Assembly: GCA_044225175.1 (NCBI GenBank)
Contig: JBGAJA010000003.1
Location: 197,428 to 261,427, forward strand
Direction: 5' to 3'
Source of the DNA: Candidatus Omnitrophota bacterium
GTDB taxonomy: Bacteria > Omnitrophota > Gorgyraeia > Zapsychrales > Fredricksoniimonadaceae
Length of the DNA stretch: 64,000 nt
The position numbers and the translations under genes were made by a program. Below, in pieces: positions 432 to 47,467 of the stretch (its first letter is position 1; each line of letters begins with the position of its first letter). Below the pieces are notes generated by a model, which made no database searches, was not told the DNA's origin, and was given only the letters and a program-made list of their open reading frames with translations.

Positions 432-3230
432 ATGTATAAACGATTTATCGCTTCCCTGATTATTCTTACCTTCAGTTGTACTTTAATAACTCCCCAAGCT
501 AACGCAGCACAAGAATCTTTAAATTTACCTATACCCGGCACCATGATTAACCTAAGCCCTGCGTTTGAACCAACCTTAATCAAAGGTCTAACAGTTCATA
601 AAGATAACCCATTTTTGTTTGATTTCATCGTAGATACCGGCAATTCAGGATTATCGTTAGAGATGACCGGCCGGTCGTCTCTACGGGAAGAATCTGACCG
701 ATTAATCAAATATTTTTTCGCCTGTCTGACAGTCCCTGAGAAAGACCTGTGGGTTAACCTATCCCCCTATGAAAAAGACCGAATAGTCCCAGAAGCATTA
801 GGCCAAACAGCCTTAGGACGCGATCTTCTGGCTCAAGACTATATCCTTAAACAGCTAACCGCTTCGCTGATATACCCTGAAAAAGACCTAGGGAAAGAAT
901 TTTGGAACAGAGTGTATGCCAAAGCACAAGCCATGTACGGCTCCAATGCCCAGATACCAGTTAACACCTTTAATAAGGTATGGATCCTAGCAGATAAGGC
1001 AACGGTCTACGAACATGGACAAACAGCCTTTGTAGTTAATGGGCATTTGAAGGTGATGTTGGAAGAAGATTATCTAGCCAGAGACAAGAATCACAAAAAG
1101 GTGTCAGACACCTTTTTGAGCAGTCAAATTATCCGTGATATCGTCATTCCTGAAATCGAAAAAGAAGTCAATACCGGTAAAAACTTCGCTACCTTACGCC
1201 AAATCTTCAATTCCCAGATTCTAGCCACATGGTACAAAAAGAACCTCAAAGAAGCTCTCATCAATCAGGTCTATACTGATAAAAACACCATCAAAGGTGT
1301 AAATTTATCAGACCCATCAGTCAAAGAGCACATTTACCAGCAATACCTTCAGGCCTACAAGAAGGGTGTATTCAACTATGTCAAAGAAGATAAACAAGCC
1401 AATGGCCAGGCAGTTCCAAGAAAATATTTCTCAGGCGGGTATCAAGGGGCCAATGCAGCCATGCTCATAGTATCTCATGATTCTAAGCAGGTTGAGGGAG
1501 CTTTGATGTCAACAGGAAATAGATTCCGTTTTCAAATAGCTCTTGCCATCAATAGTGATTCCGCCATGGCAGCTAGCGAGAGTATGTTTTCTAAAATGGC
1601 AGAAAAGGATATTCATAGTCTTCAAAATTGGCTGGCCCACACAAATAATTTTTTTGATATAAGTAAGATGCCTTTTGATGAGAAATTATCTGTGATTGGC
1701 GCAGATCTTAAATTAACAGTTCTTCCTACTTTAGAAGAATTAGAGCTATTGACTCAAGTTGAAATAATGATGTTAACCTTTGAAGGTAAGGCAGAGACGC
1801 CAATTAATCTTTTAAAAGACTTAGTGGTAAAGATAGCGCAGGATGATTCACTAAAGAAATTATTTGCCAACCCTTCCATTCAAATCCGGCTTAAAGCAGT
1901 AAAAACTCAAGAGATTGAACTAAATATATTATTTAATTTTCTAAAACAAATACTTGGAATAAGTGAACGTACTGTCCCCACAGGAGAGTTTAGCAGAGTG
2001 AAAGGAGGGGTCGTCTGGCAGAAACATGGTGTGAAAGGTGCTGAAAAGAATCCGTCAGTAATTCCTGCTGTCGTTGCATTCATTGATGATGGTTTATATG
2101 AAGTTGGGATTCATCAATCCCACATGGGTGAGATATTAAAACTCACTCCACAATCCCCAAATATGTTGGAACGATTAGTAGAATTATTAAATAAAAATGT
2201 CATTACGGTTCAAAATAAGATCAGACCTCTAACGCCTGAAGAAGTGATAATCTTTGCAAAGATTATTTCTGAAGAAAGAACAGCTTTACAAAATGTCCCT
2301 TTAAAATCTGCAACACTCCTTCCATCCTATCTTAATGCAGATCAGTTGAATGATTTGATTTTGTCGATTGTTAATAAGTATGATATTAAAACTGGTTTAA
2401 AGAAATCTGATTCAGCCATGGCTGCTAAACCCAAAGAAACTCAATCTTCGAATTTAGCTAAGGGCGTAAATTTTGAAGAATTAGACAGAGAAAACAAAGA
2501 GCTAATCCAAAAATTACCAAAGCAGGGAGGCTTAACCTTATCTGATCCCCTCAGCGAACGTCCGATGCAACCAACAGATACCTTTGAGATTCCCTTGGAT
2601 TCATTGAGAATTTACCCCGTCATAGTAACCGTTAATGGTTCCAACCCTTTACGAATTCTCAGAAATCAATTGGGAAAGGACGTCCATTTCCAAGCAGGAT
2701 GGTTAGGGGTGAGAGAACTATTAAACCCAGGTCTCTTTGACTTTACGAAGGGGCGTTGGAGAGTGATTCAATCTGATGGAAGAGAGAAAATTTCTCCATC
2801 TCTTAAAATTGAAGTCACCCCTGACAAACTGATTATTTCTACTACCGACTTTAGAGTTGGAGATCTAAGCATTCGATATTTTGATCAAAGTAATAAAGCC
2901 ATGGTGGTGGCTAAACCAGCAGGAAAATTTGCCGATGCAGCGATGGCGACTAAAAGCGAGACAGTAGCTGATAAAGTAACAATTACGGAAAAATTACCAC
3001 CCGGTGGTATCGACTTAAACTCAGCCAATATGGGTATGATGGTGACCAAGGATGCTAATGGCGGGGTGAAGGTTAATTTTGACCCTGCCATGATTGAACG
3101 CATAAAATCTCAAGGTGTGTTCTCGGCCGATCCGATTATTATTCAAATCACCCCAATCAATGCAACCCAGATACGCCCATTGCTTGGATTCAAAGATCTC
3201 GAGCAAACTCAAAAGCTGGCGAAAGTTTAG
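432..3230 (+). CDS. Large secreted protein, paralog A (932 aa). Signal peptide, then a conserved ~330 aa N-module and ~90 aa C-module shared with the CDSs at 37066, 40893 and 44630; unique central region
   Basis: AAGGAG RBS 8 nt before the ATG. N-terminus MYKRFIASLIILTFSCTLITPQANA is signal-peptide-like. The N-module (LPIPGTMINLSPAFEP...FLFDFIVDTGNSGLSLE...KYFSGG) is ~85% identical to paralog C. The C-module is PGGIDLN...ERIK.QG.FSA.P.II.ITP. No known family recognised. Confidence 0.8.
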   Translation: MYKRFIASLIILTFSCTLITPQANAAQESLNLPIPGTMINLSPAFEPTLIKGLTVHKDNPFLFDFIVDTGNSGLSLEMTGRSSLREESDRLIKYFFACLTVPEKDLWVNLSPYEKDRIVPEALGQTALGRDLLAQDYILKQLTASLIYPEKDLGKEFWNRVYAKAQAMYGSNAQIPVNTFNKVWILADKATVYEHGQTAFVVNGHLKVMLEEDYLARDKNHKKVSDTFLSSQIIRDIVIPEIEKEVNTGKNFATLRQIFNSQILATWYKKNLKEALINQVYTDKNTIKGVNLSDPSVKEHIYQQYLQAYKKGVFNYVKEDKQANGQAVPRKYFSGGYQGANAAMLIVSHDSKQVEGALMSTGNRFRFQIALAINSDSAMAASESMFSKMAEKDIHSLQNWLAHTNNFFDISKMPFDEKLSVIGADLKLTVLPTLEELELLTQVEIMMLTFEGKAETPINLLKDLVVKIAQDDSLKKLFANPSIQIRLKAVKTQEIELNILFNFLKQILGISERTVPTGEFSRVKGGVVWQKHGVKGAEKNPSVIPAVVAFIDDGLYEVGIHQSHMGEILKLTPQSPNMLERLVELLNKNVITVQNKIRPLTPEEVIIFAKIISEERTALQNVPLKSATLLPSYLNADQLNDLILSIVNKYDIKTGLKKSDSAMAAKPKETQSSNLAKGVNFEELDRENKELIQKLPKQGGLTLSDPLSERPMQPTDTFEIPLDSLRIYPVIVTVNGSNPLRILRNQLGKDVHFQAGWLGVRELLNPGLFDFTKGRWRVIQSDGREKISPSLKIEVTPDKLIISTTDFRVGDLSIRYFDQSNKAMVVAKPAGKFADAAMATKSETVADKVTITEKLPPGGIDLNSANMGMMVTKDANGGVKVNFDPAMIERIKSQGVFSADPIIIQITPINATQIRPLLGFKDLEQTQKLAKV
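658..683 (+). repeat. 26 bp near-perfect palindrome (tagagatgaccgg|ccggtcgtctcta) inside the paralog A coding sequence, encoding ..LEMTGRSSL..
   Basis: The two halves are reverse complements with one T/G (wobble-compatible) mismatch. Homologous palindromes lie at 37295..37320 and 41128..41153. Confidence 0.8.
1095..1117 (+). repeat. 23 bp perfect palindrome AAAAAGGTGTCAGACACCTTTTT embedded in paralog A's variable linker (encodes KKVSDTF)
   Basis: Exact reverse-complement symmetry. Two more copies lie at 60114..60139 and 60155..60177 inside another ORF. Confidence 0.85.
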
Positions 3231-3260: not shown

Positions 3261-3301
3261 AAACCTTCGTTGGGTAGAGTTTACCTAGCGAAGGTTTTTT
3301 T
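3261..3301 (+). terminator. Rho-independent terminator after paralog A
   Basis: 9 bp stem aaaccttcg (3261..3269) pairs with cgaaggttt (3289..3297), followed by a T7 run. Confidence 0.6.
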
Positions 3302-15281: not shown

Positions 15282-15287
15282 AACTTT

Positions 15288-20955: not shown

Positions 20956-20966
20956 TCATACTTAAA

Positions 20967-22555: not shown

Positions 22556-22673
22556 ATGCTCATAATTAAAGGGTTTACATATTTTCTGTGACAATGAAAA
22601 ATCAATTCAATTAATAGAATGATTTTTAATATCTGTTAATATATTGATAATATTATCATTCATTTGAAATCTT

Positions 22674-30514: not shown

Positions 30515-30527
30515 AGATCAGAGGCTT

Positions 30528-31560: not shown

Positions 31561-31582
31561 ATTTAAATAACAGGAGGAATCT

Positions 31583-34290: not shown

Positions 34291-34298
34291 GACAATTT

Positions 34299-36266: not shown

Positions 36267-36405
36267 TTCCAACTATTGCTTTAGGATGGCGTTGATATGT
36301 GAGGGGTTTGTTATGAAATATTGCATTTTTTGGTATTAAGTACTATACTTCTCATCAATTCTTGAAAAAGGTTATTTTTATTAATCTCAATGTAGGAGTA
36401 GAGCA

Positions 36406-36699
36406 ATGGTTAAAAACAAATTTTTCTCAGCAGTACTACTTACGTTGTTTGTGGTTTCCGTAATGTCCATTTCAAAAGTTTTAGCATGTCCCCCATGTCC
36501 TGCTGGGGTTATTCAGATTGGATGCACAGAGAATGGTGAACCCATATGTGTATCTCAATATCCAGGGGATAATCTTGATCAAGATACTGACTCTGATGAT
36601 AATCCACCTCCTCGAAATCCAAAACAACCCAAAAAAGAGGAATCCTTTTGGGATGACGTTAAGTTTTGGGCTTCATATTTTGAATCTTATTTTGAATAA
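36406..36699 (+). CDS. Small secreted Cys-containing acidic/Pro-rich protein, cassette copy 1 (97 aa)
   Basis: Signal peptide, C-x(14-16)-C motif (CPPCPAGVIQIGCTENGEPICV), then a D/E/P-rich linker and an aromatic C-terminus. Paralogous to the CDSs at 40427 and 44201. Confidence 0.7.
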   Translation: MVKNKFFSAVLLTLFVVSVMSISKVLACPPCPAGVIQIGCTENGEPICVSQYPGDNLDQDTDSDDNPPPRNPKQPKKEESFWDDVKFWASYFESYFE

Positions 36700-36740
36700 T
36701 GAAGGCATTAAAACTCTTTCATTGGTCATTAGTCGTTTTA

Positions 36741-36772
36741 AAACCCTCTGATTACAATTCAGAGGGTTTTTT
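36741..36772 (+). terminator. Rho-independent terminator after small gene 1
   Basis: 10 bp stem aaaccctctg / cagagggttt, 9 nt loop, T6 run. Confidence 0.7.
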
Positions 36773-36875
36773 ATGCAATGCCCTAAAAATGCCTTTTCTG
36801 GCATTATGGGCTATACTTCTTTTAGATTTTAATAAGTGAGCTCTATCTTATTAACTCACATGTATGGAATAAGCC

Positions 36876-37044
36876 ATGACCAAAAAAAATCTTTTCAGTA
36901 GTATTACTTACGTTGTTTGTGGTTTCCGTAATGTCCATTTCTAAGTTTTAGCGTGTCCACTATGTCCTGCTGGGGTTGTTCAGATTGGATGCACAGAGGA
37001 TGGTCAAGCCATATGAGTGTCTAAATATCCAGGGGATAATTTCT
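36876..37044 (+). pseudogene. Degenerate duplicate of the 5' part of the small-protein gene (~92% identical to 36433..36578), with frameshift and in-frame stops
   Basis: Direct alignment of 36898..37044 with 36433..36578 (ttacgttgtttgtggtttccgtaatgtccatttc...tgtcctgctggggtt.ttcagattggatgcacagag.atggt...atatccaggggataat). A 2 nt length difference after the ATG and a TAA stop disrupt the frame. Confidence 0.7.
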
Positions 37045-37065
37045 GTTTTTAAGGAAGTCCAATTT

Positions 37066-40000
37066 ATGTTCAAAAGATTGATCTCTATTTTACTTATTCT
37101 GACCTTTTGCAATGAAACCTTTATGGTTTCTCCTGCAATAGCTTTAGAAGGTAATATACAGCTGCCTGTTGCAGGATCTATGGTCAATTTAAGTCCTGCC
37201 TTTGAACCGGTCCTTATTAAAGGGTTAACCATTCATAAAGAAAATCCATTTCTGTTTGATTTTATCGTGGATACTGGAAATTCAGGATTATCGTTAGAGA
37301 CGCAGCATGCTGCGTCTCTACGTAAGGAATCTGAGAGATTAATCAAATACTTCTTCGCTTGTTTGACCATTCCAGAAAATGACCTATGGGTCAACCTTTC
37401 GCCATACGAGAAACAGCGTATGGTTCCAGAAGCCCTGGGACAAACCGCCCTGGGTCGAGATCTTTTAGCTCAAGACTATATCCTTAAACAGCTCACTGCA
37501 TCCTTGATCTATCCTGAGCGTGAGCTGGGAAAAGAGTTTTGGAATCGAGTCTACGCTAAAGCCCAAGCAATGTATGGGCCAAACGTTCAAATACCAGTCA
37601 ATACATTTAATAAGGTATGGATCCTGGCAGACAAGGCCAGTGTGCACGAACGAGGCCAGAGCGTGTTTGTGGTCGATGGGCATCTCAAAGTAATGTTGGA
37701 AGAAGATTATCTAGCCGTAGACAAGAGCCTACAGCCAACCAGGGGATATGTTCAGAACAAAATTAACAGGAACGTGTCCCCAAGCACATTGCCAAGCGAC
37801 GTAGTATTGAATACGAAAGCACCCCAGGGAAACCCCGTTAACGCCATCGGAAGCCAAATCATCCGAGACATCATCCTCCCTGAAATCGAAAAAGAAGTCA
37901 ACGAGGGCAAGAATTTTGCAACCTTACGTCAGATTTTTAATTCTCTGATTCTAGCAACCTGGTATAAGAACAATCTCAAAGACTCGATTCTTAATCAGCT
38001 TTATTCTGATAAGAACATCGTCAAAGGTATCAACCTTTCTGATTCTTCAATCAAAGAGAAAATTTATCAGCAATATCTTCAGGCTTATAAGAAGGGAGTA
38101 TTTAACTATATTAAGGACGATCCACAGGCCAGTGGTCAAAATATTCCCAGAAAGTATTTCTCTGGCGGTTTTGGGGCAAAGAAAGGTTTTTTAAGTAAAA
38201 TTAGTTCTGCTAAGGCCCACCATCCTACGGGTCGTGATTATGTTATGAAAGTTGGATTGGATGTGCAAGGCTCCGCAAATTTGTTCGATCAGGCACAGAT
38301 AGCAAGGGCACTCCACTCTTTAAGGGTTTTTCTTATGGGTTCTATTGTAGCGTCAGGAGCAATATCAAATCTAGCAACGGGTTACCAGCAGCCAGTTATT
38401 CAAGAAACATCAGAAAATCTCTCTGATCATCCATTAAAGACACCAAACGGTAATATTCATATTTTCCCATCTCTTCATGCAAGTAATAAAAGTAGAGAAA
38501 AGCTTGAAAAGGCTTTAAAGACTTTTGATGAATTTTATAAACAACAAAATAAAGATAGGAAGCAATTCACAGAAGCAGCAAAAGTAGCAATAGGGGCTAT
38601 AGATCAATTCTTAAATGATAATAGTTACGTCCTAGAAGATCAGAAAAAGCAAGTACCGGATTTGATAGGAAAGATTACAAACAACCACATCAAATATCTT
38701 TCACCTGAGGGTGTCCCCGTAGAAATGGATGGGGTAACAATGCAAGAGATGATTATGAAGGCGAATAATGAATATACAAAACTTGAAGAACAATTAGAAC
38801 CTCTAAAGAATTTAGGTTGGAAAGGAAGTGTCTTGAATGTTTATAGCTTATCAAGAGGGACAATTGCTTTTTTATGCAGAACTTACGGTGATTTTTTAAT
38901 TCAGCAGGAAGTAGAGATCTTTCCGGTAGACTTACTGATGTGGGGAAATATGGGAGAGAAGATGGAAGTTGAATTTATGATGTATGGTTTCACAGAGGAA
39001 GAAGCTCAGAATGAATCTTTACAATTGAAAGGAGATGCCAGAAATAGGTTTACTGCTTTTAGAGTTAATAATGGATCTCAATGGAACAGAATAACGCATA
39101 AAAACGTGAGCTTCGAGCCACCCCTAGGTAACAAGGATATTATCATTGGAAATGGACATACAGTTACGCAGTTAGAAGAAAATTCTCCTAAAGTTAAAAC
39201 TACACTTCAAGGAGAAATTAAAAGACAACAGTTAAGGCCAAATAGTGAGATTGATTCAACTATAGAGCTTGATAGGGATGTTCTTATGCTTCAATTGAAT
39301 GCAGATCCTGTATTTAAGTATCTTTACGGAGAAGTAACAAAAGAAGATTTAACGAATTGGAGCAGGAATGGCACAGTGTATCAGCCGCTAATAGAGATTA
39401 TTAAAGAAGACACCTTAGGTCCAATGACTAAACTGTCGAAACTGTCAAAAGACCCTAAAACTATCGCAGATCCGTCAAATTTGAAATTTATCTTCTTTAA
39501 CAGTCCCAAAAACAATGAATTTGGAATTAAGAAGGGAAACCTTTTTGTTTATAGGGTAGGCTCGCGCGTCTATGTTTTAGTACCTTTAGATGCTTTTCAA
39601 GAGAACGTAAATGATGCGCACAAAATGACGTTTTTACTTAAATGCGCTTTATTAGCATTAGTAGATCAAGACAAGGGATTAACGTTGTTGGAGCAAGAGA
39701 TCAAGGCTATGAGGATGTTTAGAGACATGCTTTTAAAATATGATCCAAACTCAAGCCGCCGTACGATAGAAGTATATCAAGAGTTAGCGGCAAGGTTTCA
39801 ATCATTAGATAATAATATAAAAAGTATTGAAGAGTATATTGATTGGAGCTTTACGAAGGTTGATGTTTCAAAATTGAGATATTATGAATCTAAACGTGAT
39901 GAAGAGGATCCTAAGATTATAGTTGTACAGTTGTTTGATCCACAAACAGTTAATCAAGATGGAAAAGCAACCTTCATTAATGTCAAGATAGTTGAAGGTG

Positions 40001-40290
40001 AAGCTCCAGTAGTTAAAGAGGAATTAGGTCAGATTTCAAATCCAGCTATGATTAGTGAAGATAGAGAAGAAATGTCGCAATTATTAAGAGTGACGGAAAC
40101 ATCGCCAGGGGGTATCGATTTAAATACCACTGATATGGGTATGGCAGTGACAAAAGATGGCTCTGGTGTTGATATGTCTGCCTTCGGCGGAAATCCAGCC
40201 ATGTTAGAACGTATCAAGGCCCAAGGGATCTTTTCAGCAGAACCAATCATTATTGAAATTACCCCTGTAACCGCTTTAATGTACGAATAG
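37066..40290 (+). CDS. Large secreted protein, paralog B (1074 aa from MFKRL). Central region is homologous to paralog C but not to A or D
   Basis: Signal peptide; N-module and C-module shared with A, C and D. The ORF tracker's 36976 start runs back into the pseudogene remnant. Confidence 0.8.
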   Translation: MFKRLISILLILTFCNETFMVSPAIALEGNIQLPVAGSMVNLSPAFEPVLIKGLTIHKENPFLFDFIVDTGNSGLSLETQHAASLRKESERLIKYFFACLTIPENDLWVNLSPYEKQRMVPEALGQTALGRDLLAQDYILKQLTASLIYPERELGKEFWNRVYAKAQAMYGPNVQIPVNTFNKVWILADKASVHERGQSVFVVDGHLKVMLEEDYLAVDKSLQPTRGYVQNKINRNVSPSTLPSDVVLNTKAPQGNPVNAIGSQIIRDIILPEIEKEVNEGKNFATLRQIFNSLILATWYKNNLKDSILNQLYSDKNIVKGINLSDSSIKEKIYQQYLQAYKKGVFNYIKDDPQASGQNIPRKYFSGGFGAKKGFLSKISSAKAHHPTGRDYVMKVGLDVQGSANLFDQAQIARALHSLRVFLMGSIVASGAISNLATGYQQPVIQETSENLSDHPLKTPNGNIHIFPSLHASNKSREKLEKALKTFDEFYKQQNKDRKQFTEAAKVAIGAIDQFLNDNSYVLEDQKKQVPDLIGKITNNHIKYLSPEGVPVEMDGVTMQEMIMKANNEYTKLEEQLEPLKNLGWKGSVLNVYSLSRGTIAFLCRTYGDFLIQQEVEIFPVDLLMWGNMGEKMEVEFMMYGFTEEEAQNESLQLKGDARNRFTAFRVNNGSQWNRITHKNVSFEPPLGNKDIIIGNGHTVTQLEENSPKVKTTLQGEIKRQQLRPNSEIDSTIELDRDVLMLQLNADPVFKYLYGEVTKEDLTNWSRNGTVYQPLIEIIKEDTLGPMTKLSKLSKDPKTIADPSNLKFIFFNSPKNNEFGIKKGNLFVYRVGSRVYVLVPLDAFQENVNDAHKMTFLLKCALLALVDQDKGLTLLEQEIKAMRMFRDMLLKYDPNSSRRTIEVYQELAARFQSLDNNIKSIEEYIDWSFTKVDVSKLRYYESKRDEEDPKIIVVQLFDPQTVNQDGKATFINVKIVEGEAPVVKEELGQISNPAMISEDREEMSQLLRVTETSPGGIDLNTTDMGMAVTKDGSGVDMSAFGGNPAMLERIKAQGIFSAEPIIIEITPVTALMYE

Positions 40291-40426
40291 CCGCCTAATA
40301 TCTTATTTAAGAAGGATTTTGGGCTCTTTTTAAAAAAGATTCGAATGACCTCTAATTGTCTTTTTCAACTTTTTGGTATATACTTTTTATGACTTGAGAT
40401 TTTTGTCTTTTAATTAATCATTACTA

Positions 40427-40729
40427 ATGGGAGGGATAAACTTGAAAAAAACAATACTAATGCTGGCTTTAACACTAAGTTTCACAGTACTAACTACATC
40501 ATTAAGCGTGGCCCTTCCGCCTCCAAAATGTCCTCCAGGATCTCATTTGGAACTTGTTGATGGTACACCTGTGTGTGTTCCTGATGGCGATGGTCAACCA
40601 CCCCCAACAGAATCACCAGATGAGGAGGGATTAGATGAGATGATCCCAGCTGATTATAATCAAAAGAGTTTCTTGGGGAAGTGTTGGGTTATTACTAAAG
40701 CTTTTATAAAAAGTTGCTTTGATAATTAA
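40427..40729 (+). CDS. Small secreted Cys-containing acidic/Pro-rich protein, cassette copy 2 (start may be the TTG at 40442, preceded by GGGAGGG)
   Basis: LPPPKCPPGSHLELVDGTPVCVPDGDGQPPPTESPDEEG, then a C-terminus with two Cys and Trp. Confidence 0.7.
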   Translation: MGGINLKKTILMLALTLSFTVLTTSLSVALPPPKCPPGSHLELVDGTPVCVPDGDGQPPPTESPDEEGLDEMIPADYNQKSFLGKCWVITKAFIKSCFDN

Positions 40730-40762
40730 TGACTCGAAAAACATCTTAATAGGAGAATGTTT

Positions 40763-40796
40763 TAAGACCCTCTGTGATTACAGAGGGTCTTTTTTT
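40763..40796 (+). terminator. Rho-independent terminator after small gene 2
   Basis: 11 bp stem aagaccctctg / cagagggtctt, 6 nt loop, T8 run. Confidence 0.75.
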
Positions 40797-40892
40797 TGAA
40801 TTTGCAATGATGACATAGGCATGCTATCTTTTAGCAGGCCTCAATCGTACCCATAGCATCTCTTTTTAAAGCAATTGAATATTGGGACAATT

Positions 40893-43800
40893 ATGTTTAA
40901 ACAGTTGATTGCTTTTCTAATCATTTTGACCTTCAGTACTTCCTCAATTTATGTGCCTCAGGCGCAAGCCATAGAGAAGCCATATCTTTTGTCTTTGCCT
41001 GTTCCAGGCACAATGGTCAATTCAAGCCCATCCTATGAACCTGCATTAATCAAGGGGTTGACCATTCATAAAGACAACCCATTTTTGTTTGATTTTATTG
41101 TGGATACGGGTAATTCTGGATTATCGTTAGAGACGACCGGCCGCTCGTCTCTACGCGAAGAATCTGACCGTTTAATTAAATATTTTTTCACCTGCCTGAC
41201 AGTTCCAGAAACAGACCTCTGGGTCAATTTGTCACCTTATGAGAAAGACCGTATTGTTCCTGAAGCATTGGGAGAAACGGCCTTAGGACGAGATTTGCTT
41301 GCCCAAGACTATATCCTTAAACAACTGACTGCATCGCTAATTTATCCCGAGAAAGACTTAGGCAAGGAGTTCTGGAGCCGTGTTTATGCCAAAGCACAAG
41401 CCATGTATGGCTCTAATGTTCAGATTCCAGTTAATACCTTTAATAAGGTATGGATCCTGGCAGACAAAGCAAGTGTTTATGAAAATGGCCAGAGCGTGTT
41501 TGTGGTTGACGGACATTTGAAAATTATGTTAGAAGAAGATTATTTGGCCCTTCAGAAGAACCACATTTCCTCTCCCCACAAGGGGAAGGAAACCAGTTCT
41601 ATCGGATCCCAAATCATCCGCGACATCGTCCTTCCTGAAATAGAAAAAGAAGTCAACCATGGCAAGAATTTCGCAACTCTACGACAAATTTTCAACTCTC
41701 TCATTCTAGCTAGCTGGTATAAGAAAAATCTCAAAGACTCTATTCTTAATCAGCTCTATTCTGATAAAAATACGGTTAAAGGCATTAATCTTTCAGATAT
41801 CTCAGTGAAAGACCAGATTTATCATCAATATCTTAAAGCTTATAAGAAGGGAGTATTTAACTATATTAAGGAAGACCCTTCGACTGACTCTCAGGGCAAG
41901 TCCCAAGCAATTTCCAGGAAATACTTCTCTGGTGGTTTTGGAGTAAGGAAAGATTTCTTAAGCAAGGCAAGTCCTGCTATGGCGGCCCAAAAACTCGGCC
42001 GTACAACAGGTCAAGATTATGCTATGAAGGTAAGGTTGAATGTAGAAGCCCCATCTAACTTATCAGATCAAGCACAAATAGCTGCTGCAATAAGATATCT
42101 CAGAGCATTTTTGATTGGATCGATATTATCCTCAGGATTTATTGAAAATAATGTGAATAGCTATCAACAGCCAGAAACTCTAGAAGCTACTTTCAAAGAA
42201 GCACAAAATGTTCCTGAATCCTCAGTTCAAACACCTAAAGGAGAAATTACTTTTTTCCCGGCTGATCATGTAAGTATGGATAGTATCGAAGAATTGGAAA
42301 AGGCTTTGAATTCTTTCGATAAGAATGAGGCTAATAAAGCCATTGATAAGTTCTCTACACAGAACAGAGCAATATTAGAGGGGCAGAGAAGTCAAGTCGA
42401 AGATATGATCGATAAGATTAAAAGAAATCATATCAAATACCTTTCACCAGAGGGAGTATCCGCAGATATGGAAGGGATGTCAATGCAAGAGGTGATCGCA
42501 CTGGCTCGCGAGCAATACACTACACTGGAAGCCCAATTAGAAAAATTAGGTCGTAAAGAAAGCGCTGAGGATCTTTATTTAGGAATAACTGGTCCTACTT
42601 CCTTTTTATGTTTGATGCATGGGGATGTCTTAATACAGCAGGGTGTTGAACTCTTTCCTATTGATTTGCCGATTTGGGGCAATATGGCGAGAGATATCAA
42701 AATAAAGCTTGAGAAACAGGGGATAACAGGAAAAGAAGCATGGGAAACAGCTTTTTCTCTTATGTTAACAAGTAGAAATAAGTTTATGGCGTACAGATTT
42801 TTCCAGGGACCACAAGGCAAAAAAGGTAGCTCTATGGGACCCTTTCACACAGGTGAGAAACCTGAAGGAGAGAATCCTCCTAGAATTGATTCGACCTTAC
42901 CGGGTGAAATTGAAAAACTAATTGAAAAATCAAAATCAAGCCCCGCCATTGAAATTGATCCGAAGGTTGAATCAGATCGTAAAGAACTTATTGCGCGTTT
43001 GAATGCTGACCCTGTATTTAATTTGCTTTATGGGGATGTAAACACAGAAAATATCAAATCATGGAGTAAGAATGGATTGCAGTATCAGCCTTTGATAGAC
43101 ATCGTGACTAAGTACACCTTGGATCCAATGAGTAAGGCATTCCAAATTTCTATCGCAGATCCTTCTAATTTAAGATTTGTATTCTTTGAAAGTCCTAAAA
43201 ATAATGAATTTGCAATGAAGAGAGGGCATCTTTTTACTTATAAAGTCGGCTCTCGCACGTACATCTTAATACCTTTAGATACTTTTCAAAAAGCCAGGGC
43301 AGCAGAAGCAGTAGCTTTCTTACTTAAAAGTGCCTTGGTAGCTTTAATGGATCAAGACAAGACAGTACCAGCAATGAAAAGAGACATAGATATTCTTACC
43401 TATTTTAGAGGAATCCTATCGAATTATGATAACAATCCTTCTTTTAAGGAGAGAAATTTAGAAACAAAAACAAGGTTTGAACTTATACAGAGTAATATAA
43501 GTGGTGTTGAACAGGCTATTCATAAGGATTTGCCGCAAGTTGATGTTGCAAAATTGCGATATTATGATTCTAAGCGTGATAAAAAGGACCCTACGGTTAT
43601 ATTTGCTCAATTCTTCGATCCACAAACTGTCACCAGGGATGGAAAAGTTCCCTTTATTAAAGTAAATATAATTGATAAGCCTGGATCAACAGTTACAGTC
43701 AAGCAAGAACCTGGTCAAATTAGCAATCCAGCGATGATTGGTGAAGAAGATATACAATCGAAAGTAACGCCAGGGGGTATTGATTTGAATACTACTGACA

Positions 43801-43976
43801 TGAGTATGGCCGTGACCAAGGATGCTGGAGGAGTCAAGATGAATCTGCCAGCCAGAGGCTGGTCCGCCTCCGGCGGAGATTCAGCCATGCTTGAGCGTAT
43901 CAAAGTTCAGGGGGTATTTTCGGCCACTCCTGTAATTATTGAAATTACACCTGTGAGTTCTTTAAGGTACAAATAA
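40893..43976 (+). CDS. Large secreted protein, paralog C (1027 aa from MFKQL)
   Basis: N-module ~85% identical to A. Central region shares blocks with B (NHIKYLSPEGV, LNADPVF, ADPSNLRFVFFESPKNNEF, VDVAKLRYYDSKRD). C-module conserved. Confidence 0.8.
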   Translation: MFKQLIAFLIILTFSTSSIYVPQAQAIEKPYLLSLPVPGTMVNSSPSYEPALIKGLTIHKDNPFLFDFIVDTGNSGLSLETTGRSSLREESDRLIKYFFTCLTVPETDLWVNLSPYEKDRIVPEALGETALGRDLLAQDYILKQLTASLIYPEKDLGKEFWSRVYAKAQAMYGSNVQIPVNTFNKVWILADKASVYENGQSVFVVDGHLKIMLEEDYLALQKNHISSPHKGKETSSIGSQIIRDIVLPEIEKEVNHGKNFATLRQIFNSLILASWYKKNLKDSILNQLYSDKNTVKGINLSDISVKDQIYHQYLKAYKKGVFNYIKEDPSTDSQGKSQAISRKYFSGGFGVRKDFLSKASPAMAAQKLGRTTGQDYAMKVRLNVEAPSNLSDQAQIAAAIRYLRAFLIGSILSSGFIENNVNSYQQPETLEATFKEAQNVPESSVQTPKGEITFFPADHVSMDSIEELEKALNSFDKNEANKAIDKFSTQNRAILEGQRSQVEDMIDKIKRNHIKYLSPEGVSADMEGMSMQEVIALAREQYTTLEAQLEKLGRKESAEDLYLGITGPTSFLCLMHGDVLIQQGVELFPIDLPIWGNMARDIKIKLEKQGITGKEAWETAFSLMLTSRNKFMAYRFFQGPQGKKGSSMGPFHTGEKPEGENPPRIDSTLPGEIEKLIEKSKSSPAIEIDPKVESDRKELIARLNADPVFNLLYGDVNTENIKSWSKNGLQYQPLIDIVTKYTLDPMSKAFQISIADPSNLRFVFFESPKNNEFAMKRGHLFTYKVGSRTYILIPLDTFQKARAAEAVAFLLKSALVALMDQDKTVPAMKRDIDILTYFRGILSNYDNNPSFKERNLETKTRFELIQSNISGVEQAIHKDLPQVDVAKLRYYDSKRDKKDPTVIFAQFFDPQTVTRDGKVPFIKVNIIDKPGSTVTVKQEPGQISNPAMIGEEDIQSKVTPGGIDLNTTDMSMAVTKDAGGVKMNLPARGWSASGGDSAMLERIKVQGVFSATPVIIEITPVSSLRYK

Positions 43977-44200
43977 TGCTAAACCTCGATATTTCAAGGT
44001 GTTTTTACTCTTTTTAAAAAAAATTGGCATTCTCTAAATTTATAGTTTATACTTTTTGAAGTTTCACAGTAGTGCCCCTATTTTTCCCGTTTTGTTACAT
44101 CTTGATTTTTTTTGGTTCTTAAAGGAAGCGCTTACTCCAATAAAGAATGAATAAATCAAGAATTATTAAAGAAGTAACCCATCAATCAGAGGAGGGAAGT

Positions 44201-44500
44201 ATGTTGAAAAGAATGCTAGTAGTGTTGGTTTTAGCAGTAAGCTTCACATTTCTAACTACATTGCCTAGTTTTGCCCAACCGAGTAAGGGTTGTACTGCAG
44301 GTACTCATATGGAATTAATCGATGGTTATCCTGTGTGTGTTCCCGATAGTGATAATAATAATCCACCACCTCCACCAACACCTCCTCCTACACAAAATGA
44401 ACCACCAAGTGAATTAGATAAGCAGATTCTTAACTGCGGTTTGTTTGTCTGGGATTGTTATAAAAAGTGGGAAACATGGAAGTCCATTTTAGATGATTAA
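44201..44500 (+). CDS. Small secreted Cys-containing Pro-rich protein, cassette copy 3 (start revised to MLKRM after GGAGG)
   Basis: AQPSKGCTAGTHMELIDGYPVCVPDSDNNNPPPPPTPPP, then a Cys/Trp-rich C-terminus. Confidence 0.7.
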   Translation: MLKRMLVVLVLAVSFTFLTTLPSFAQPSKGCTAGTHMELIDGYPVCVPDSDNNNPPPPPTPPPTQNEPPSELDKQILNCGLFVWDCYKKWETWKSILDD

Positions 44501-44519
44501 AATTTGGTGTTATCTTAAG

Positions 44520-44549
44520 AACCCTGTACCATACGGTACAGGGTTTTTT
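44520..44549 (+). terminator. Rho-independent terminator after small gene 3
   Basis: 11 bp stem aaccctgtacc / ggtacagggtt, 4 nt loop, T6 run. Confidence 0.75.
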
Positions 44550-44629
44550 ATTGCTTAATTTTCACCTTCCTTGGATTTGCTTTTCCACTATTCAGTCGAG
44601 TATACTTTTATCAGATCCTATTAATATGT

Positions 44630-47467
44630 ATGTATACTAAGGTCCTAATGCTTAAGCGTTGCATATCTTTCTTTATTCTTTTGTGTTTCACCTATACTTC
44701 GGTAATTCCACCTGCCTATGCCCAGGAAATGATTCATTTACCTATACCTGGTCAGATGTTAGATCCTAGTCCAGTTTTTAATTTTCCTATAATTAAAGGT
44801 TTAACTATTCATCCTGAGAATCCTTTGCAGTTCGATTTTTTGATTGATCCTGGCCAGGGCAATCTTTCCCAGAAAGATAAACAAATTGAATATCAGAAGA
44901 TTATTAAGTATTTTTTGGCTTCTTTGACTGTTCCTGAGAAGGACTTATGGGTCAATCTTTCTCCTTATGAAAAGAACCGCATGATTCCTGATAGTTTTGG
45001 CAAGACAGAGATGGGAAGAGATCTTCTGGCTCAAGACTATATTCTCAAGCAAATTACAGCATCGCTCATGTATCCAGAGAAGGAGCTAGGGAAAAGCTTT
45101 TGGAATAAGGTCTATCAAGAAGCTCAGAATCGTTTTGGCAATACCGATATTCCCGTGAACACCTTCAATAAAGTTTGGATAGTCCCGGACAAGGCATCGG
45201 TGTATGAGAAGGAGAATACGGTATTTCTGGTAGAAGGGCATTTGAAGGTGATGTTGGAGGAGGATTATCTGGCCATCCAAAAACACCACCAGGGAAAGGG
45301 AACCAATTCTATCGGCAGCCAAATCATCCGTGAAATCATTCTCCCTGCCATTGAAGAAGAAGTCAACCAAGGCAAAAATTTTGCCAACCTCCGCCAAATC
45401 ACCAATTCATTGATCCTTGCGACGTGGTATAAGACCGCCCTTAAACAAAGCCTTCTGAATAAGATTTATGCGGATAAAAGTAAAGTAGAAGGTGTTAACC
45501 TAGATGATCCTAAGGACAATCAAAAGATTTACCAACGATACCTCCAAGCCTTCAAAAAAGGCGTTTATAACTACATCAAAGAAGAATCAGACCCAGTGAC
45601 CAAAGAATTCATCCCTAGAAAATATTTTTCTGGAGGGTTTTCACCAGACTTAGATGGAGTCATGTTAGGTCAACGCATTAAGCAACTAGATCTAATCAAA
45701 GATGCAGCCTTAATAGCAAAAGTTACGAAGAGTACTTTTGTATTAGATCAAACCCAAGTTTTATTAAAAGATGTGCCAAATCATCCTTATGGGAATGAAA
45801 GTTTTATTAGTAGAGAGTTGGATAAATTATTTCAAACTTATATTGATTTTCATTCTTGGTTGTCAAAGAAGAGGCAACAGAGAGTGCTTTTAGTTGGTGT
45901 TGGAAGAGGGCTAGCAGCTATGCAATTAGCACTGAGATATCCCAATTTAGAAATTATTGCGGTCAATAAAGAAAGCGACTTATGGTCTGATAAAATTATT
46001 GGAGATTATCTAGTCAGTACAGGTGTGCGCAAGAAAGATGTTACAGCCGCACGAAAAAGGATAACCTTAAACATAGTTGATTTAGATTCTGAATCAGGAA
46101 AGCAACAAATTTTTAAAGAAAGATATGATGCGATTATTTTCGAGCCATTCGTTCTAATATATTTTAGAGATAAAGTAAAAGCAATTGAAGCTGCCTACAA
46201 TGCATTAAATCCTAATGGATTTTTAGGGTTTGAAAAAAATAGAATTCTGGCATCAAATAAGAATAAGGAAGAAGAAGTTCTTAACGTTTTGTTAAGCAGT
46301 CTTGCTGCACCAAGGCCAATAATAGATACTGTAAATAGTGTTCAATTAATTAAGAAAAGTTCAAAAAAAATAAATATTCCTCTTAAGTTAAAACGTTCAG
46401 AATTAGCTGCAATACCTAATTATTCTAGTGTTAAGCCAATAAATTCTTTTTATTCATTAGACCAAGCGCAAGTTACATTGCAGGAGCCAACGTATTCGTC
46501 TGATTCAGCAATGGCATCTAAACAAAAAGATACGCAAATAAATAAGCGCGATCAGAAATACCATTATGAATGGTCCATTGACCATTTAGGCAAAGGCAGC
46601 GTGGAGATCAATTATTCCCCTATGCAGAATAAAACATGGGTGGAATATACTGCACCAGGTGAACTTAAGAAAAAAGCTGAATTATCGGGGAAGCATGTAG
46701 TTCCTATGAAAAACAAATTTTATTCGGGCATGGATGGAGACATAAAGATATTTCCTTATATTGTCTCTAAAGGTTTTTCGGAATTGTTAAAAAAAGCAGG
46801 CATCCCATTAAAGTTTCTAGTTCCAGATACAATTCCTAACCGAGTAAGAGTTTTTATATTTGCTTTAACTCAAGCAGGTATAAGTATTGGAAATTCGGAT
46901 CAATTAAAAGACAGCCCACAATTTGCTCAAGGTGGCAAGCAAGATGAGGCTATGGTCGCGATAAGTCCGATTAATTGGAAGATAGTAGAAGGACAAGGCT
47001 ATCCTTTTGAGATTTCTAAGGATAAAGATACAAAAATTGCACCTATTGTTCGTCATTATTATGTGACTTTCAATGGGAAACGTGTGACATTCGCAGATAG
47101 GAAACAGTCTAGCTCAAGTGTTCTTTATATTTATGCCGATCGAAAGATCGTTCATATGGAATCATTTAATCCATTATTTCCTAGAACCAAAGAAATGCGC
47201 CAAAAAGTAAGTCAAGATCTTGGAGGTATTGACCTTAACCCAAGGAATTTTAACCTCCAAATCAAACGCGACGGTAAGGGTGTGCCTTTGCCGGTCGAGT
47301 TTCAGGATGTTGAGCATATCAATGTACGTGGATTTATTCCTGTGATTATCAAAATTACGCCTGTTTCGAATCTGAGATTGTTGTTAGGAATGGCAGAGAA
47401 CAAAGAGCTCCCGAAAATCCCATCCAATTCAGAAGCACATTTCCCACAATACGCGCTTAAGGAATAA
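44630..47467 (+). CDS. Large secreted protein, paralog D (945 aa; most divergent). Central region contains a SAM-dependent methyltransferase-like segment
   Basis: Conserved N-module (~60% identical to A) and C-module (GGIDLN...ITPVSNL). Central segment RVLLVGVGRGLAAM...YDAIIFE...LNPNGFLGF resembles class I MTase motifs I, II and III. Confidence 0.75.
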   Translation: MYTKVLMLKRCISFFILLCFTYTSVIPPAYAQEMIHLPIPGQMLDPSPVFNFPIIKGLTIHPENPLQFDFLIDPGQGNLSQKDKQIEYQKIIKYFLASLTVPEKDLWVNLSPYEKNRMIPDSFGKTEMGRDLLAQDYILKQITASLMYPEKELGKSFWNKVYQEAQNRFGNTDIPVNTFNKVWIVPDKASVYEKENTVFLVEGHLKVMLEEDYLAIQKHHQGKGTNSIGSQIIREIILPAIEEEVNQGKNFANLRQITNSLILATWYKTALKQSLLNKIYADKSKVEGVNLDDPKDNQKIYQRYLQAFKKGVYNYIKEESDPVTKEFIPRKYFSGGFSPDLDGVMLGQRIKQLDLIKDAALIAKVTKSTFVLDQTQVLLKDVPNHPYGNESFISRELDKLFQTYIDFHSWLSKKRQQRVLLVGVGRGLAAMQLALRYPNLEIIAVNKESDLWSDKIIGDYLVSTGVRKKDVTAARKRITLNIVDLDSESGKQQIFKERYDAIIFEPFVLIYFRDKVKAIEAAYNALNPNGFLGFEKNRILASNKNKEEEVLNVLLSSLAAPRPIIDTVNSVQLIKKSSKKINIPLKLKRSELAAIPNYSSVKPINSFYSLDQAQVTLQEPTYSSDSAMASKQKDTQINKRDQKYHYEWSIDHLGKGSVEINYSPMQNKTWVEYTAPGELKKKAELSGKHVVPMKNKFYSGMDGDIKIFPYIVSKGFSELLKKAGIPLKFLVPDTIPNRVRVFIFALTQAGISIGNSDQLKDSPQFAQGGKQDEAMVAISPINWKIVEGQGYPFEISKDKDTKIAPIVRHYYVTFNGKRVTFADRKQSSSSVLYIYADRKIVHMESFNPLFPRTKEMRQKVSQDLGGIDLNPRNFNLQIKRDGKGVPLPVEFQDVEHINVRGFIPVIIKITPVSNLRLLLGMAENKELPKIPSNSEAHFPQYALKE

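Follow-up and report, generated by a model that had tools for sequence, protein, structure and literature searches.

The four large genes of this window (the whole 64,000-nucleotide stretch that was analyzed) are paralogues within a large undescribed protein family whose members carry essentially only labels of the ultra-small Omnitrophota. Every member has a Sec-type signal peptide, a constant head of ~310 residues, one or more exchangeable cargo domains, and a constant tail of 60 to 80 residues. Our best reading, held tentatively with a probability of roughly 0.45, is that these proteins are Sec-exported carriers whose exchangeable payload probably acts on or in host or prey cells by a mechanism that we infer.

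The initial annotation of this DNA described three units of a small secreted-protein gene followed by a gene for a ~1000-residue protein, together with a fourth large copy, and all of these are present on the + strand. L0 (932 aa, 432..3230, signal peptide MYKRFIASLIILTFSCTLITPQANA) consists of an N-module (432–1439), cargo (1440–3002), and C-module (3003–3230), with [DN]xAM sites at residues 341, 376, 660, 821, 835, and 884; as read from the sequence, a terminator-like hairpin followed by a T-run lies 3′ of the gene (3262..3296, +). L1 (1074 aa, 37066..40290) consists of an N-module (37066–38169), cargo (38170–40107), and C-module (40108–40290). We place its start at ATG 37066, and the homologue P0002 begins MFKRL; the TTG start at 36976 in the list of open reading frames is an artefact in which the reading frame extends into a small-gene remnant. 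L2 (1027 aa, 40893..43976) is divided at 41936/41937 and 43772/43773, and L3 (945 aa, 44630..47467), the most divergent member, which probably starts at 44648 (MLKR...), is divided at 45637/45638 and 47221/47222. Each of the four proteins has a signal peptide, a ~310-residue N-module ending RKYFSGG, an unrelated middle, and a GGIDLN C-module, which measures 60 to 81 residues rather than the ~90 first estimated. When HMMs built from homologues were run against the six-frame translation of the window, they matched exactly the L0–L3 open reading frames and no other, at levels far beyond chance (N-module E 1e-156 to 1e-171; C-module E 1e-15 to 1e-29).

The N-modules of L0–L3 are 60 to 80% identical in protein and 69 to 79% identical in nucleotide sequence. 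The initial annotation had put nucleotide identity at ~88% and called the duplication recent; at no more than 79%, no higher than the protein identity, the duplications are not recent. The middles behave differently from the heads. L1 and L2 have heads that are 79% identical and homologous middles (46% identical), whereas L0 and L2 have heads that are 80% identical and unrelated middles. No match to anything was found for the L3 and L0 middles, and the L2 cargo has no detected relative other than that of L1; the earlier description of two middles alike and two different agrees with this when its labels are assigned in the order of the genes along the DNA. None of the four window cargos has a recognizable domain, although that of L3 includes a weak class-I methyltransferase-like stretch (GxGxG, residues ~411–532) and the joints DSAM (residue 625) and DEAM (residue 772).

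Beyond the window, the family comprises 8,013 cluster representatives at E ≤ 1e-3 (6,156 at E ≤ 1e-30), with the N-module at the protein N-terminus in all matches listed. Species-representative genomes contain at least 573 confirmed stretches, several genomes giving several loci, and the 79 loci that we kept are labelled Omnitrophota/Omnitrophica or "uncultured Planctomycetales", except for two labelled only "bacterium". As the initial annotation had also found, the large proteins belong to no family that we could recognize, whether by profile searches of the Pfam and NCBIfam libraries, other database searches, or a fold search with the head. Among 120 homologues the head motifs LSPYE and YFSGG occur in 119 and 118, respectively, and GGIDL lies 60 to 90 residues from the C-terminus in 112. 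Head and tail occur together in 51/51 complete open reading frames; the apparent exceptions are either truncated at the end of a contig or interrupted by a frameshift. Heads are 55 to 70% identical across the phylum with ~60 invariant residues, many of them aromatic or lysine, indicating strong purifying selection on the protein. The head is globular alpha/beta, and we found in it no fold match, no long hydrophobic helices, and no translocation-type feature. The tail has an internal repeat-like pattern (GGIDLNxxxM / GxGVxxxxDPAM). The model of the full-length protein (pLDDT 54) is too poor for judging how head and tail pack. Export is suggested by the N-terminal sequence: 147 of 172 full N-termini passed a simple signal-peptide heuristic (basic n-region, hydrophobic core, small-x-small site), and the scarcity of Arg-Arg (24/169 n-regions) favors Sec over Tat.

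Between these constant ends, middles are swapped freely across the family. No other middle matches 96 of the 160 compared, and among pairs with heads 80 to 90% identical the middles are unrelated in 246 of 255; P0048 and P0133, for example, have heads that are 94% identical and no similarity in the middle. Thus the signal-peptide proteins with conserved ends and swapped middles first noticed in the window hold family-wide. Pfam domains are found in the cargo of about a quarter of homologues (31/120), and these are mostly cytoplasm-type, a label that rests on this annotated quarter because the other three quarters have no recognizable domain. They include enzymes (adenylate kinase, enolase, phosphoglycerate kinase (PGK), transaldolase, hexokinase, Glu dehydrogenase, malate synthase, and aminotransferase), an acyl carrier protein (ACP), receiver, RNA polymerase alpha-CTD, and XRE HTH domains, and, in some members, the binding modules ankyrin, HEAT, and LysM, with a few cargos of extracellular type (LysM). 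The PGK cargo covers profile positions 3 to 379 of 379 with its motifs kept (277 bits against the Pfam model). The enolase cargo is near-complete and keeps most catalytic residues (144 bits), but a His aligns to a catalytic Glu and its activity is uncertain.

Joints between the parts are marked by a family-specific tetrapeptide, [DN]xAM. D.AM occurs 449 times in family proteins against 16 expected and N.AM 124 times against 13, while permuted motifs occur at expectation; the motif is absent from non-family neighbors after family fragments are removed. The sites have a median spacing of 180 residues, and one ACP-like domain has a DAAM motif exactly at each of its two borders. Because the codons used for the motif vary, the signal is at the protein level. 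Inside the tail the motif starts a short helix (DPAMIxRI), and it might equally be a helix cap or hinge. No candidate protease for cutting it was identified.

We considered whether the head and tail instead serve to fix the protein to the envelope of the cell that makes it, or to assemble it there into a coat or S-layer-like "velamen", with no delivery into another cell. The middle would then face outward and serve in adhesion to hosts, provide variation in antigens or phage receptors, or moonlight as a binding module. This is possible, though we think it unlikely. The export signal and hypervariable middles fit it as well, the extreme conservation of head and tail across the phylum (55 to 70% identity) agrees with their binding a conserved structure of the producer itself, and the invariant aromatic and lysine residues of the head, the ankyrin, HEAT, and LysM cargos, and the fact that glycolytic enzymes are surface adhesins in other bacteria all count in its favor. 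However, pure display would not need the catalytic and nucleotide-binding motifs kept in the complete PGK and near-complete enolase, and receiver, HTH, ACP, and RNA polymerase alpha-CTD domains have no obvious surface role. Models of anchoring motifs (LPXTG, PEP-CTERM, T9SS CTD, SLH) went unmatched, and many paralogues per genome would be unusual for a lattice protein.

Quite improbable, in our estimation, is an extracytoplasmic housekeeping role, in which the N-terminal hydrophobic segment is an uncleaved anchor and the family is a scaffold that keeps metabolic and regulatory domains at the inner membrane or in the periplasm to serve the metabolism of a very small cell. Central-metabolism enzymes do dominate the cargo list, the hydrophobic core is rather long (median 18 residues by a crude count), and the genes sit among housekeeping genes, the upstream neighbor having the same orientation at 47 of 51 loci. 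Yet the hydrophobic core is preceded by basic residues, and the positive-inside rule then places the bulk of the protein outside the cytoplasm, where ATP, NAD, and sugar phosphates are unavailable. Most cargos are orphan sequences with quick turnover, unlike housekeeping genes, and the cargo enzymes are divergent paralogues; canonical PGK and enolase would be expected to score much higher against the Pfam models than the values given above. Strict-threshold enolase and PGK are, moreover, reported in all 176 complete Omnitrophota genomes, a count that possibly includes fused copies (bioRxiv 10.64898/2026.06.07.730766).

The initial annotation had proposed a two-gene cassette of small and large gene, regulated and exported by the adjacent ECF sigma/Spy/TolC–MacA–MacB module. 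Its components are real. The ECF sigma factor, zf-HC2 anti-sigma, LTXXQ/Spy-like protein, OEP, HlyD, and MacB lie directly upstream of the array (30507–36266), and the type IV pilus/T2SS-like machine described further upstream is there as well (secretin, GspE, GspF, and PilM, 13220–24383). The small genes are sA (97 aa, 36406..36699, +), with a signal peptide, Cys loop, acidic/Pro-rich linker, and aromatic C-terminus, sB (100 aa, 40427..40729, +), and sC (100 aa from ATG 44198, 44198..44500, +). The listed sC start at 44147 is a 5′ extension; a Shine-Dalgarno sequence (GAGGAGGG) precedes 44198. Their layout is shared, and homology is clear for the pair sB and sC (BLASTP E 1e-17); sA and sB are marginally similar (E 1e-4), and sA and sC are not significantly similar in pairwise comparison alone. 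The promoter-like motif and strong terminator assigned to each small gene are likewise present. A TATACT −10-like box lies upstream of sA (36344..36349, +) and recurs with its flanks at 36812, 40379, 44048, and 44601. Hairpin-plus-T terminators lie 3′ of sA (36740..36770, +), sB (40764..40791, +; 12-bp stem then T8), and sC (44517..44548, +; 14-bp stem). The remnant of a fourth small gene (36790..37040, +) lies immediately before L1, to which it is fused. It is a degraded copy of the promoter and 5′ half of sA (82–85% nucleotide identity), in which the loss of 1 nt has produced an in-frame TAA.

Three consecutive units plus this remnant, signal peptides on all the proteins, the MacB module next door, and an RND-type efflux pump adjoining L0 favor a cassette, but we consider it very improbable, and at the family level it is largely refuted. 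A terminator separates each small gene from its large gene, making sA, sB, and sC separate, strongly punctuated transcription units; promoters in the array look sigma-70-like (TTGnnn/TATACT), not ECF-like; and the small-gene grouping ((sB,sC),sA) does not match the large-gene grouping ((L1,L2),L3). No small gene lies upstream of L0, no relative of the small proteins was found in a 5.8-billion-protein database, the 79 other family loci, or two metagenome scans, and tandem family genes in other genomes abut with gaps of 3 to 5 bp and no small gene between. At other loci, the 96 nearest neighbors of family genes represent 139 Pfam families, each in at most three neighbors, and among them we found no recurring exporter family, no conserved gene of any kind, and no recurring immunity-like gene. 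Family members in other genomes thus lack a small partner gene and a conserved exporter beside them, a pattern that the initial annotation itself had named as one that would refute it, and the cassette and the MacAB–TolC link are therefore unsupported. The initial interpretation is thus partly supported, its diversifying secreted protein standing, and the small Cys-loop/Pro-rich proteins are found in this genome only and lie outside the family's general mechanism.

We give almost no credence to a selfish or artefactual origin, in which head and tail bound a mobile element that captures genes, or a decaying pseudogene, and the fusions have no function of their own: middles do resemble captured genes or fragments, some members are frameshift-split, and short identical motifs occur at both joints, but there are thousands of intact in-frame open reading frames of 600 to 2600 aa under the head conservation described above, the joint motif is conserved in protein and not in DNA, no transposase or recombinase recurs among the 96 neighbors, and the family has no phage or defense-system matches.

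The architecture resembles several known systems. Multifunctional autoprocessing repeats-in-toxin (MARTX) proteins have constant ends around a set of effector domains that can be exchanged and that include enzymes, with short processing sites between domains and repertoires shuffled by recombination; the family likewise has constant ends, an exchangeable middle, and short motifs between domains. MARTX toxins, however, are not known to have a Sec signal, use type I secretion, and carry long glycine-rich constant repeats and their own cysteine protease domain. Neither of these last was detectable in the family by profile searches. Its members are also ~5-fold smaller, each genome encodes many of them, and their globular alpha/beta head gave no fold match. 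T9SS cargos share with the family a Sec signal peptide, a conserved C-terminal domain (~70 to 80 residues, on dozens of unrelated proteins per genome; 60 to 80 here), and restriction to one phylum-level lineage. Nevertheless, the family has no match in NCBIfam or Pfam, which are expected to include Por/T9SS CTD models, we know of no common 310-residue head among T9SS cargos, and those cargos are known as hydrolases and adhesins, not cytoplasm-type enzymes. Cellulosomal enzymes have the same order of signal peptide, catalytic module(s), and ~70-residue C-terminal dockerin, and the family tail has a repeat-like pattern, but its spacing as read does not fit a Ca-binding loop, Pfam searches gave neither a dockerin nor an EF-hand match, we identified no cohesin partner, and cellulosomal enzymes have no known counterpart of the head. 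Giant proteins of dockerin type have been reported from Omnitrophota (bioRxiv 10.1101/2023.11.21.568195). The family is also like polymorphic toxins in its N-terminal module, swapped payload, junction motif, and multiple paralogues per genome. In those toxins a short conserved motif such as VENN or DPxGL marks the constant/variable junction. They include CdiA and Rhs, with a conserved N-terminal trafficking module and a variable payload replaced by recombination (PMC3482391, Zhang et al. 2012), and SitA-type lipoprotein toxins are counted among them (PMC8546572). Their variable toxin is at the extreme C-terminus and is followed by a cognate immunity gene, whereas the family C-terminus is constant and its recognized payloads are metabolic or regulatory, not nucleases, deaminases, or pore-formers.

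If these proteins are indeed Sec-exported carriers, they would first leave the cytoplasm through Sec. The invariant head and tail would then serve as a common handling device recognized by one conserved cellular partner, which might act in export across the outer membrane, in attachment at the surface, or in translocation, and the middle would be the payload. New payloads would arise as middles are swapped between constant frames, and [DN]xAM joints may be hinges or processing sites that free payload domains. The recognizable payloads are for the most part whole domains of cytoplasm type, which depend on ATP, NAD, or PLP or bind DNA, and so their site of action would most plausibly be the cytoplasm of another cell, a host or prey with these epibiotic or predatory nanobacteria attached to it. 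A T2SS-like locus, such as the one in this window, is reported as conserved across the phylum (bioRxiv 10.1101/2023.11.21.568195). Ca. Velamenicoccus archaeovorus, the one member of the Omnitrophota for which the literature consulted describes an enrichment culture, is a predatory epibiont for which open cytoplasmic contact with prey and predator molecules inside prey cells have been reported (PMC13153191; PMC12583861).

The four large genes of the window, L0 (432-3230), L1 (37066-40290), L2 (40893-43976) and L3 (44630-47467), all on the + strand, encode proteins of one build. The four proteins can be aligned over a signal peptide and an N-module of ~310 residues that ends in RKYFSGG (the head), and again over a C-module of 60-81 residues that starts with GGIDLN (the tail). 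We refer to head and tail together as the frame, and to the stretch between them as the middle, cargo or payload. Between heads, identity is 60-80% for protein and 69-79% for DNA; between tails it is 39-75% for protein. The initial annotation had put the nucleotide identity of the N-modules at ~88% and the length of the C-module at ~90 aa; we could not reproduce the first value (our maximum was 79%), and the C-module is shorter than stated. Its description of two middles as alike and two as different agrees with our comparison: L1 and L2 have homologous middles (46% identity), while those of L3 and L0 had no match among 160 family middles at E<=1e-5. HMMs of the two modules, searched against a six-frame translation of the window, matched exactly these four genes (N-module E 1e-156 to 1e-171; C-module E 1e-15 to 1e-29), and no further family match was found in the window.

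We found no match to the four proteins in Pfam, NCBIfam, PHROGs, PADLOC or PDB sequences. With the first four of these collections, the seven proteins encoded by the large genes and by the window's three small secreted-protein genes (sA, sB and sC) gave nothing above noise save a weak methyltransferase-like stretch in L3. PDB sequence searches with L2, with the family profile and with the middles of L3 and L0 matched no module or middle, the family profile returning low-complexity matches only. Nor is the family described in the literature that we found, two recent Omnitrophota genome surveys included. It is nonetheless very large. A word-indexed search returned at least 3,500 relatives; among the matches listed, every one with an organism name was Candidatus Omnitrophica or Omnitrophota, only the first 31-53% of the query was aligned (mostly 33-40%), and identity was 43-70%, two paralogues on the same contig excepted. 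HMMER over 1.84 billion cluster representatives gave 8,013 matches at E<=1e-3 and 6,156 at E<=1e-30, and in every match listed the N-module was N-terminal, with a start almost always no later than residue ~45. Scanning a single genome for each species, we confirmed at least 573 matching stretches, from which we kept 79 loci (up to five per genome). The genomes of 77 of these are labelled Omnitrophota/Omnitrophica or "uncultured Planctomycetales", the remaining two "bacterium" only.

The build of the family is uniform, and its head and tail are strictly coupled. Among 120 homologues, LSPYE was present in 119 and YFSGG in 118, the latter near residue 330, and GGIDL lay 60-90 aa before the C-terminus in 112. 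Between these landmarks the middle ranged from ~200 to 1,300 aa, and it is longer in other members. At the 79 loci both modules were present in all 51 complete ORFs, and every apparent one-module ORF either ran off a contig end or was interrupted by a frameshift beside the missing piece. No "empty" member, with head joined straight to tail, was seen; the shortest complete members have ~606-620 aa and middles of ~200 aa. Frameshift splits into a head-only and a tail-only ORF occur in other MAGs at loci L007, L009, L041 and L077, and such genes are either pseudogenes or the product of misassembly in long paralogues rich in repeats.

All four window proteins open with a signal-peptide-like segment followed by an LPxPGxMV start. 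Their heads share the motifs WVNLSPYE, GRDLLAQDYILKQ, PVNTFNKVW, HLKVMLEEDYLA and RKYFSGG, and each carries on the same polypeptide a 60-80-aa tail of the form GGIDLN...DPAMIxRI...ITP. Across 58-121 sequences, ~60 head columns are invariant, many of them aromatic, Lys, Asp or Glu. The predicted structure of the N-module is alpha/beta with no barrel. The full-length model of L3 (pLDDT 54) is too poor to judge how head and tail pack; it suggests that the tail may be a small beta-alpha-beta unit, and a Foldseek search with it came back empty. Pfam gave no sequence-level support for a tail of dockerin-like or EF-hand-like type, and we rejected both. The N-termini resemble Sec signals, with a basic n-region, a hydrophobic core and a small-x-small site (e.g. 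...PKAHA), and 147 of 172 full N-termini passed a simple signal-peptide heuristic; cleavage is predicted from these N-terminal features. Arg-Arg is present in just 24 of 169 n-regions (14%), so this is not a Tat family, and we rejected Tat export.

Inside this constant frame, middles are exchanged freely. BLAST detected no similarity to any other middle for 96 of the 160 middles, and just 23% of middle residues matched another member. Where two heads were 80-90% identical, the middles were wholly unrelated in 246 of 255 pairs. The homologues P0048 and P0133 share 94% of head residues and no middle similarity, and P0091 and P0115, from one MAG (HQL12_ locus tags), have heads 96% identical and 21% of the middle in common. 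The same is seen within the window: heads of L0 and L2 are 80% identical over unrelated middles, while those of L1 and L2, at 79%, flank middles that are still homologous. Thus, divergence of the frame is far outpaced, either by replacement of middles or by gene conversion that homogenises the ends; the pairs at 94-96% point either to very recent cargo replacement or to within-genome gene conversion of the ends. With an export-type N-terminus, constant ends and exchanged middles, the annotation of these genes as encoding diversifying secreted modular proteins stands.

About a quarter of the homologues (31 of 120) carry recognisable Pfam domains in their payloads, nearly all of cytoplasmic type. 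They include adenylate kinase (5 members), enolase, phosphoglycerate kinase (PGK), transaldolase, hexokinase, Glu/Leu dehydrogenase, malate synthase, aminotransferase, inositol monophosphatase and a 6-phosphogluconolactonase-type domain, as well as SAM methyltransferases, ACP, a response-regulator receiver, RNA polymerase alpha-CTD, XRE HTH, HD, NUDIX, ankyrin, HEAT and one LysM. These domains are whole: PGK spans profile positions 3-379 of 379 and has the GRP, GGGDS, TGGGA and NGPMG motifs, and the enolase cargo of P0044 (aa 399-867) retains the metal ligands and the equivalents of Lys342, His370 and Lys393. In the HMMER alignment a His stands opposite the catalytic Glu209 of E. coli enolase, so the P0044 enolase may have altered activity or none. 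The recognised payload enzymes are divergent paralogues of bacterial-type enzymes. Among the less usual cargo domains, found in P0110, P0071, P0066 and P0077, are eukaryote-type hexokinase (PF00349/PF03727), ankyrin repeats, SMODS-associated NUDIX and LysM. The cargos of the window itself are orphans: the L2 middle found only itself among 5.8 billion proteins, the L3 and L0 middles have no PDB relative, and a weak methyltransferase-like GxGxG stretch in the L3 middle is the sole hint.

A tetrapeptide, [DN]xAM, marks the borders between parts. In the 160 middles we counted D.AM 449 times against 16 expected from composition, a ~27-fold enrichment at cargo-domain borders, and N.AM 124 times against 13; most composition-matched controls (M.AD, A.DM, E.AM, D.AL and others) were at or below expectation. 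DA.M was also high (189 vs 16) because it overlaps with the frequent DAAM form. Median spacing is 180 aa, approximately the size of a domain, and the motif brackets recognised domains exactly, as with PGK in P0053 and ACP in P0033. In many members it lies 0-3 residues after YFSGG (YFSGG-x-DxAM), it also precedes GGIDLN, and the tail itself holds it as DPAMIxRI and shows it twice in a repeat-like form (GGIDLNxxxM / GxGVxxxxDPAM). The window proteins have six copies in L0, three in L2 and two each in L1 and L3, and the motif sits where homology among L0, L1 and L2 resumes ahead of the tail. It is specific to the family: in 408 non-family neighbour proteins, from which unrecognised family fragments had been removed, it was at or below expectation. 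The D, x and A positions are encoded by varying codons, and conservation does not extend to the adjoining DNA; we conclude that [DN]xAM is selected at the protein level. The idea that captured genes left their start codon behind as the Met of DxAM was rejected as a general explanation, since the P0044 enolase fits it and the P0053 PGK does not; the unconserved flanking DNA also counts against it.

The family is of a known kind, in that exported proteins combine constant trafficking modules with an exchangeable payload, and in logic it is nearest to MARTX toxins and T9SS cargo. Like MARTX toxins it has constant ends, an exchangeable array of putative effectors and putative inter-domain processing sites; unlike them, the window proteins match no glycine-rich A/B/C repeats, internal cysteine protease domain or type I signal in Pfam or NCBIfam, and carry a Sec-type N-terminal signal instead. 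It resembles T9SS cargo in that varied proteins from a single lineage bear a Sec signal and share a C-terminal tag of ~70 aa, but L0-L3 had no Por/T9SS sorting-domain match (NCBIfam, Pfam, E<=1), and no T9SS machinery was seen among the ORFs of the 64-kb window scanned against Pfam. Payload replacement and a junction motif recall polymorphic toxin systems (PMC3482391). Those toxins, however, have a variable C-terminal domain, whereas the C-terminus here is the conserved GGIDLN module in all four window proteins and in 112 of 120 homologues. They also have a cognate immunity gene immediately downstream, whereas here no family recurs among 45 downstream neighbours; what follows the window's family members is either a gene for a small secreted protein, under its own promoter, or OsmC. 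Autotransporters and chlamydial Pmp proteins are unlike the family too, which has no C-terminal beta-barrel translocator in Pfam, a tail of 60-81 aa and an N-module modelled as alpha/beta. The defining features of polymorphic toxins, T9SS cargo, MARTX and beta-barrel translocators are thus unmatched, and the family belongs to none of them. We found no precedent for two constant ends, a head without a known fold, a four-residue joint motif and payloads of housekeeping-type enzymes.

How might such proteins work? We read head and tail as a constant handling device and the middle as a payload that would act in the cytoplasm of another cell, a reading to which we give a probability of about 0.45. 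One conserved partner would recognise both head and tail, the middle would be the part delivered, and the [DN]xAM joints may serve as hinges or processing sites. Because the periplasm and medium offer no substrates for ATP-, NAD-, PLP- or DNA-dependent domains, another cell's cytoplasm is the most economical site of action. Delivery is in keeping with reports on the phylum. The predatory epibiont Ca. Velamenicoccus archaeovorus is reported to make open cytoplasmic contact with its prey, and its RNA has been detected in prey cells that had died (PMC13153191; PMC12583861); traits of host dependence are said to pervade the Omnitrophota (PMC10066038); and a T2SS-like locus, present in the window as well, is reported to be conserved across them (bioRxiv 10.1101/2023.11.21.568195). 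A bolder form of the delivery reading, possible and still tentative, is a phylum-wide platform in which a novel-fold head/tail frame would carry Sec-exported, swappable payloads through the envelope into host or prey cytoplasm and cleavage at [DN]xAM would free them. Its payloads would include working glycolytic and nucleotide-metabolising enzymes, ACP, receiver and DNA-binding domains.

The main rival is surface display without delivery, which we regard as unlikely. A self-directed membrane or periplasmic scaffold would place the payload domains in the producing cell's own envelope and is improbable.

The initial annotation had proposed a two-gene cassette, in which each large protein is paired with a small secreted partner, and had thought a link to the adjacent MacAB-TolC pump as exporter conceivable. 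Much of the local description behind it holds. Three small + strand ORFs, sA (36406-36699), sB (40427-40729) and sC (44198-44500), precede L1, L2 and L3, respectively, with L0 as a fourth large copy; for sC, a listed ORF from 44147 is an upstream extension, and the ribosome-binding site GAGGAGGG lies before 44198. Each has the promoter-like motif and strong terminator that had been described, namely a TATACT -10-like box, in promoters that resemble sigma-70 and not ECF sites, and a strong hairpin (36740-36770, 40764-40791 and 44517-44548). All three proteins show the expected layout of signal peptide, Cys loop (C-x14-16-C), acidic Pro-rich linker and aromatic C-terminus, and sB and sC are clearly related (E 1e-17), sA and sB marginally (E 1e-4). 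A CTCTTTTTAAAAAA stretch is common to 40291-40360 and 43977-44030, that is, 3' of L1 and L2 and 5' of sB and sC, and ACCCTCTG...CAGAGGGT forms the terminator stem of both sA and sB; therefore, intergenic punctuation was copied together with genes. A decayed duplicate of sA (36790-37040), comprising the promoter and 5' half at 82-85% nt identity, is fused directly upstream of L1 and contains a 1-nt deletion that leads to an in-frame TAA stop. The TTG start given to L1 at 36976 by the ORF finder falls within this remnant and is spurious, and L1 appears to have gained a small-gene promoter from it.

The pairing itself was not found outside the window. We found no relative of sA, sB or sC in the 5.8-billion-protein database, in the 79 family loci (by regex, HMM and phmmer) or in two metagenome scans; a metagenome scan for DGxP[VI]CVPD gave 112 chance-like matches, all of them outside small secreted ORFs and away from family-gene loci. 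Tandem family genes in other genomes lie 3-5 bp apart (e.g. loci L006 and L051), no small gene lies upstream of L0, and the relationships of the small genes, (sB,sC),sA, are incongruent with those of the large genes, (L1,L2),L3.

The exporter fares no better. As described before, an ECF sigma factor, zf-HC2 anti-sigma factor, LTXXQ/Spy-like protein and OEP-HlyD-MacB (30507-36266) precede the array, and genes for a secretin, GspE, GspF, pseudopilin-like proteins and PilM occupy 13220-24383. Two proteins of the latter cluster contain Laminin_G_3 (concanavalin-like) domains, one of them also PilX_N, and DsbD-MsrB-MsrA, for envelope thiol and methionine repair, lie immediately 5' of it (10783-13025). 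Rrf2, an RND pump and OEP follow L0 within 3372-9641, such that tripartite efflux systems adjoin both sites of family genes in the window. Nearly all window genes are on the + strand, with a cumulative GC skew that climbs steadily, and the whole 64 kb is free of tRNA genes and, at gathering threshold, of Rfam families. No efflux association was found at the 79 loci in other genomes, so the adjacency in the window is probably coincidence, and coincidence is the simplest account of both the MacAB-TolC and the RND pumps. The 96 nearest neighbours of family genes elsewhere fall into 139 Pfam families, and no single family is present in more than three of these neighbours. Pumps, secretins, proteases and recombinases do not recur among them, and ABC, FtsX, HlyD and OEP are absent from the families seen at least twice. 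In 47 of 51 loci the gene upstream has the same orientation as the family gene. With no recurrent neighbour, the family is therefore scattered among ordinary genes without a conserved partner. The cassette-and-pump model, lacking small-protein relatives and recurrent exporter neighbours elsewhere, is very improbable, and a false lead is removed: neither the small genes nor the MacAB pump belongs to the system, and both simply lie next to it locally. An origin as a selfish element or artefact is barely credible.

Omnitrophota are widespread, ultra-small and known almost wholly from metagenomes. A family with ~8,000 cluster representatives, several copies per genome, an export signal, a conserved frame and fast-turnover payloads has the profile expected of a host interface. 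Its two HMM-definable modules and joint motif can be searched for in existing metaproteomes, and heads and tails are natural baits for the handling machinery. Exported, apparently intact PGK, enolase and adenylate-kinase-type domains would, if delivered, be unusual effectors. If the bolder, phylum-wide form of the delivery reading is true, this family would supply the principal effectors of these predatory or parasitic nanobacteria, and its frame would define a new class of substrate for secretion or translocation. Together, these features make the family a concrete candidate for the repertoire with which a widespread, largely uncultured phylum interacts with its hosts, one that can be searched for and that would act by a mechanism we infer.
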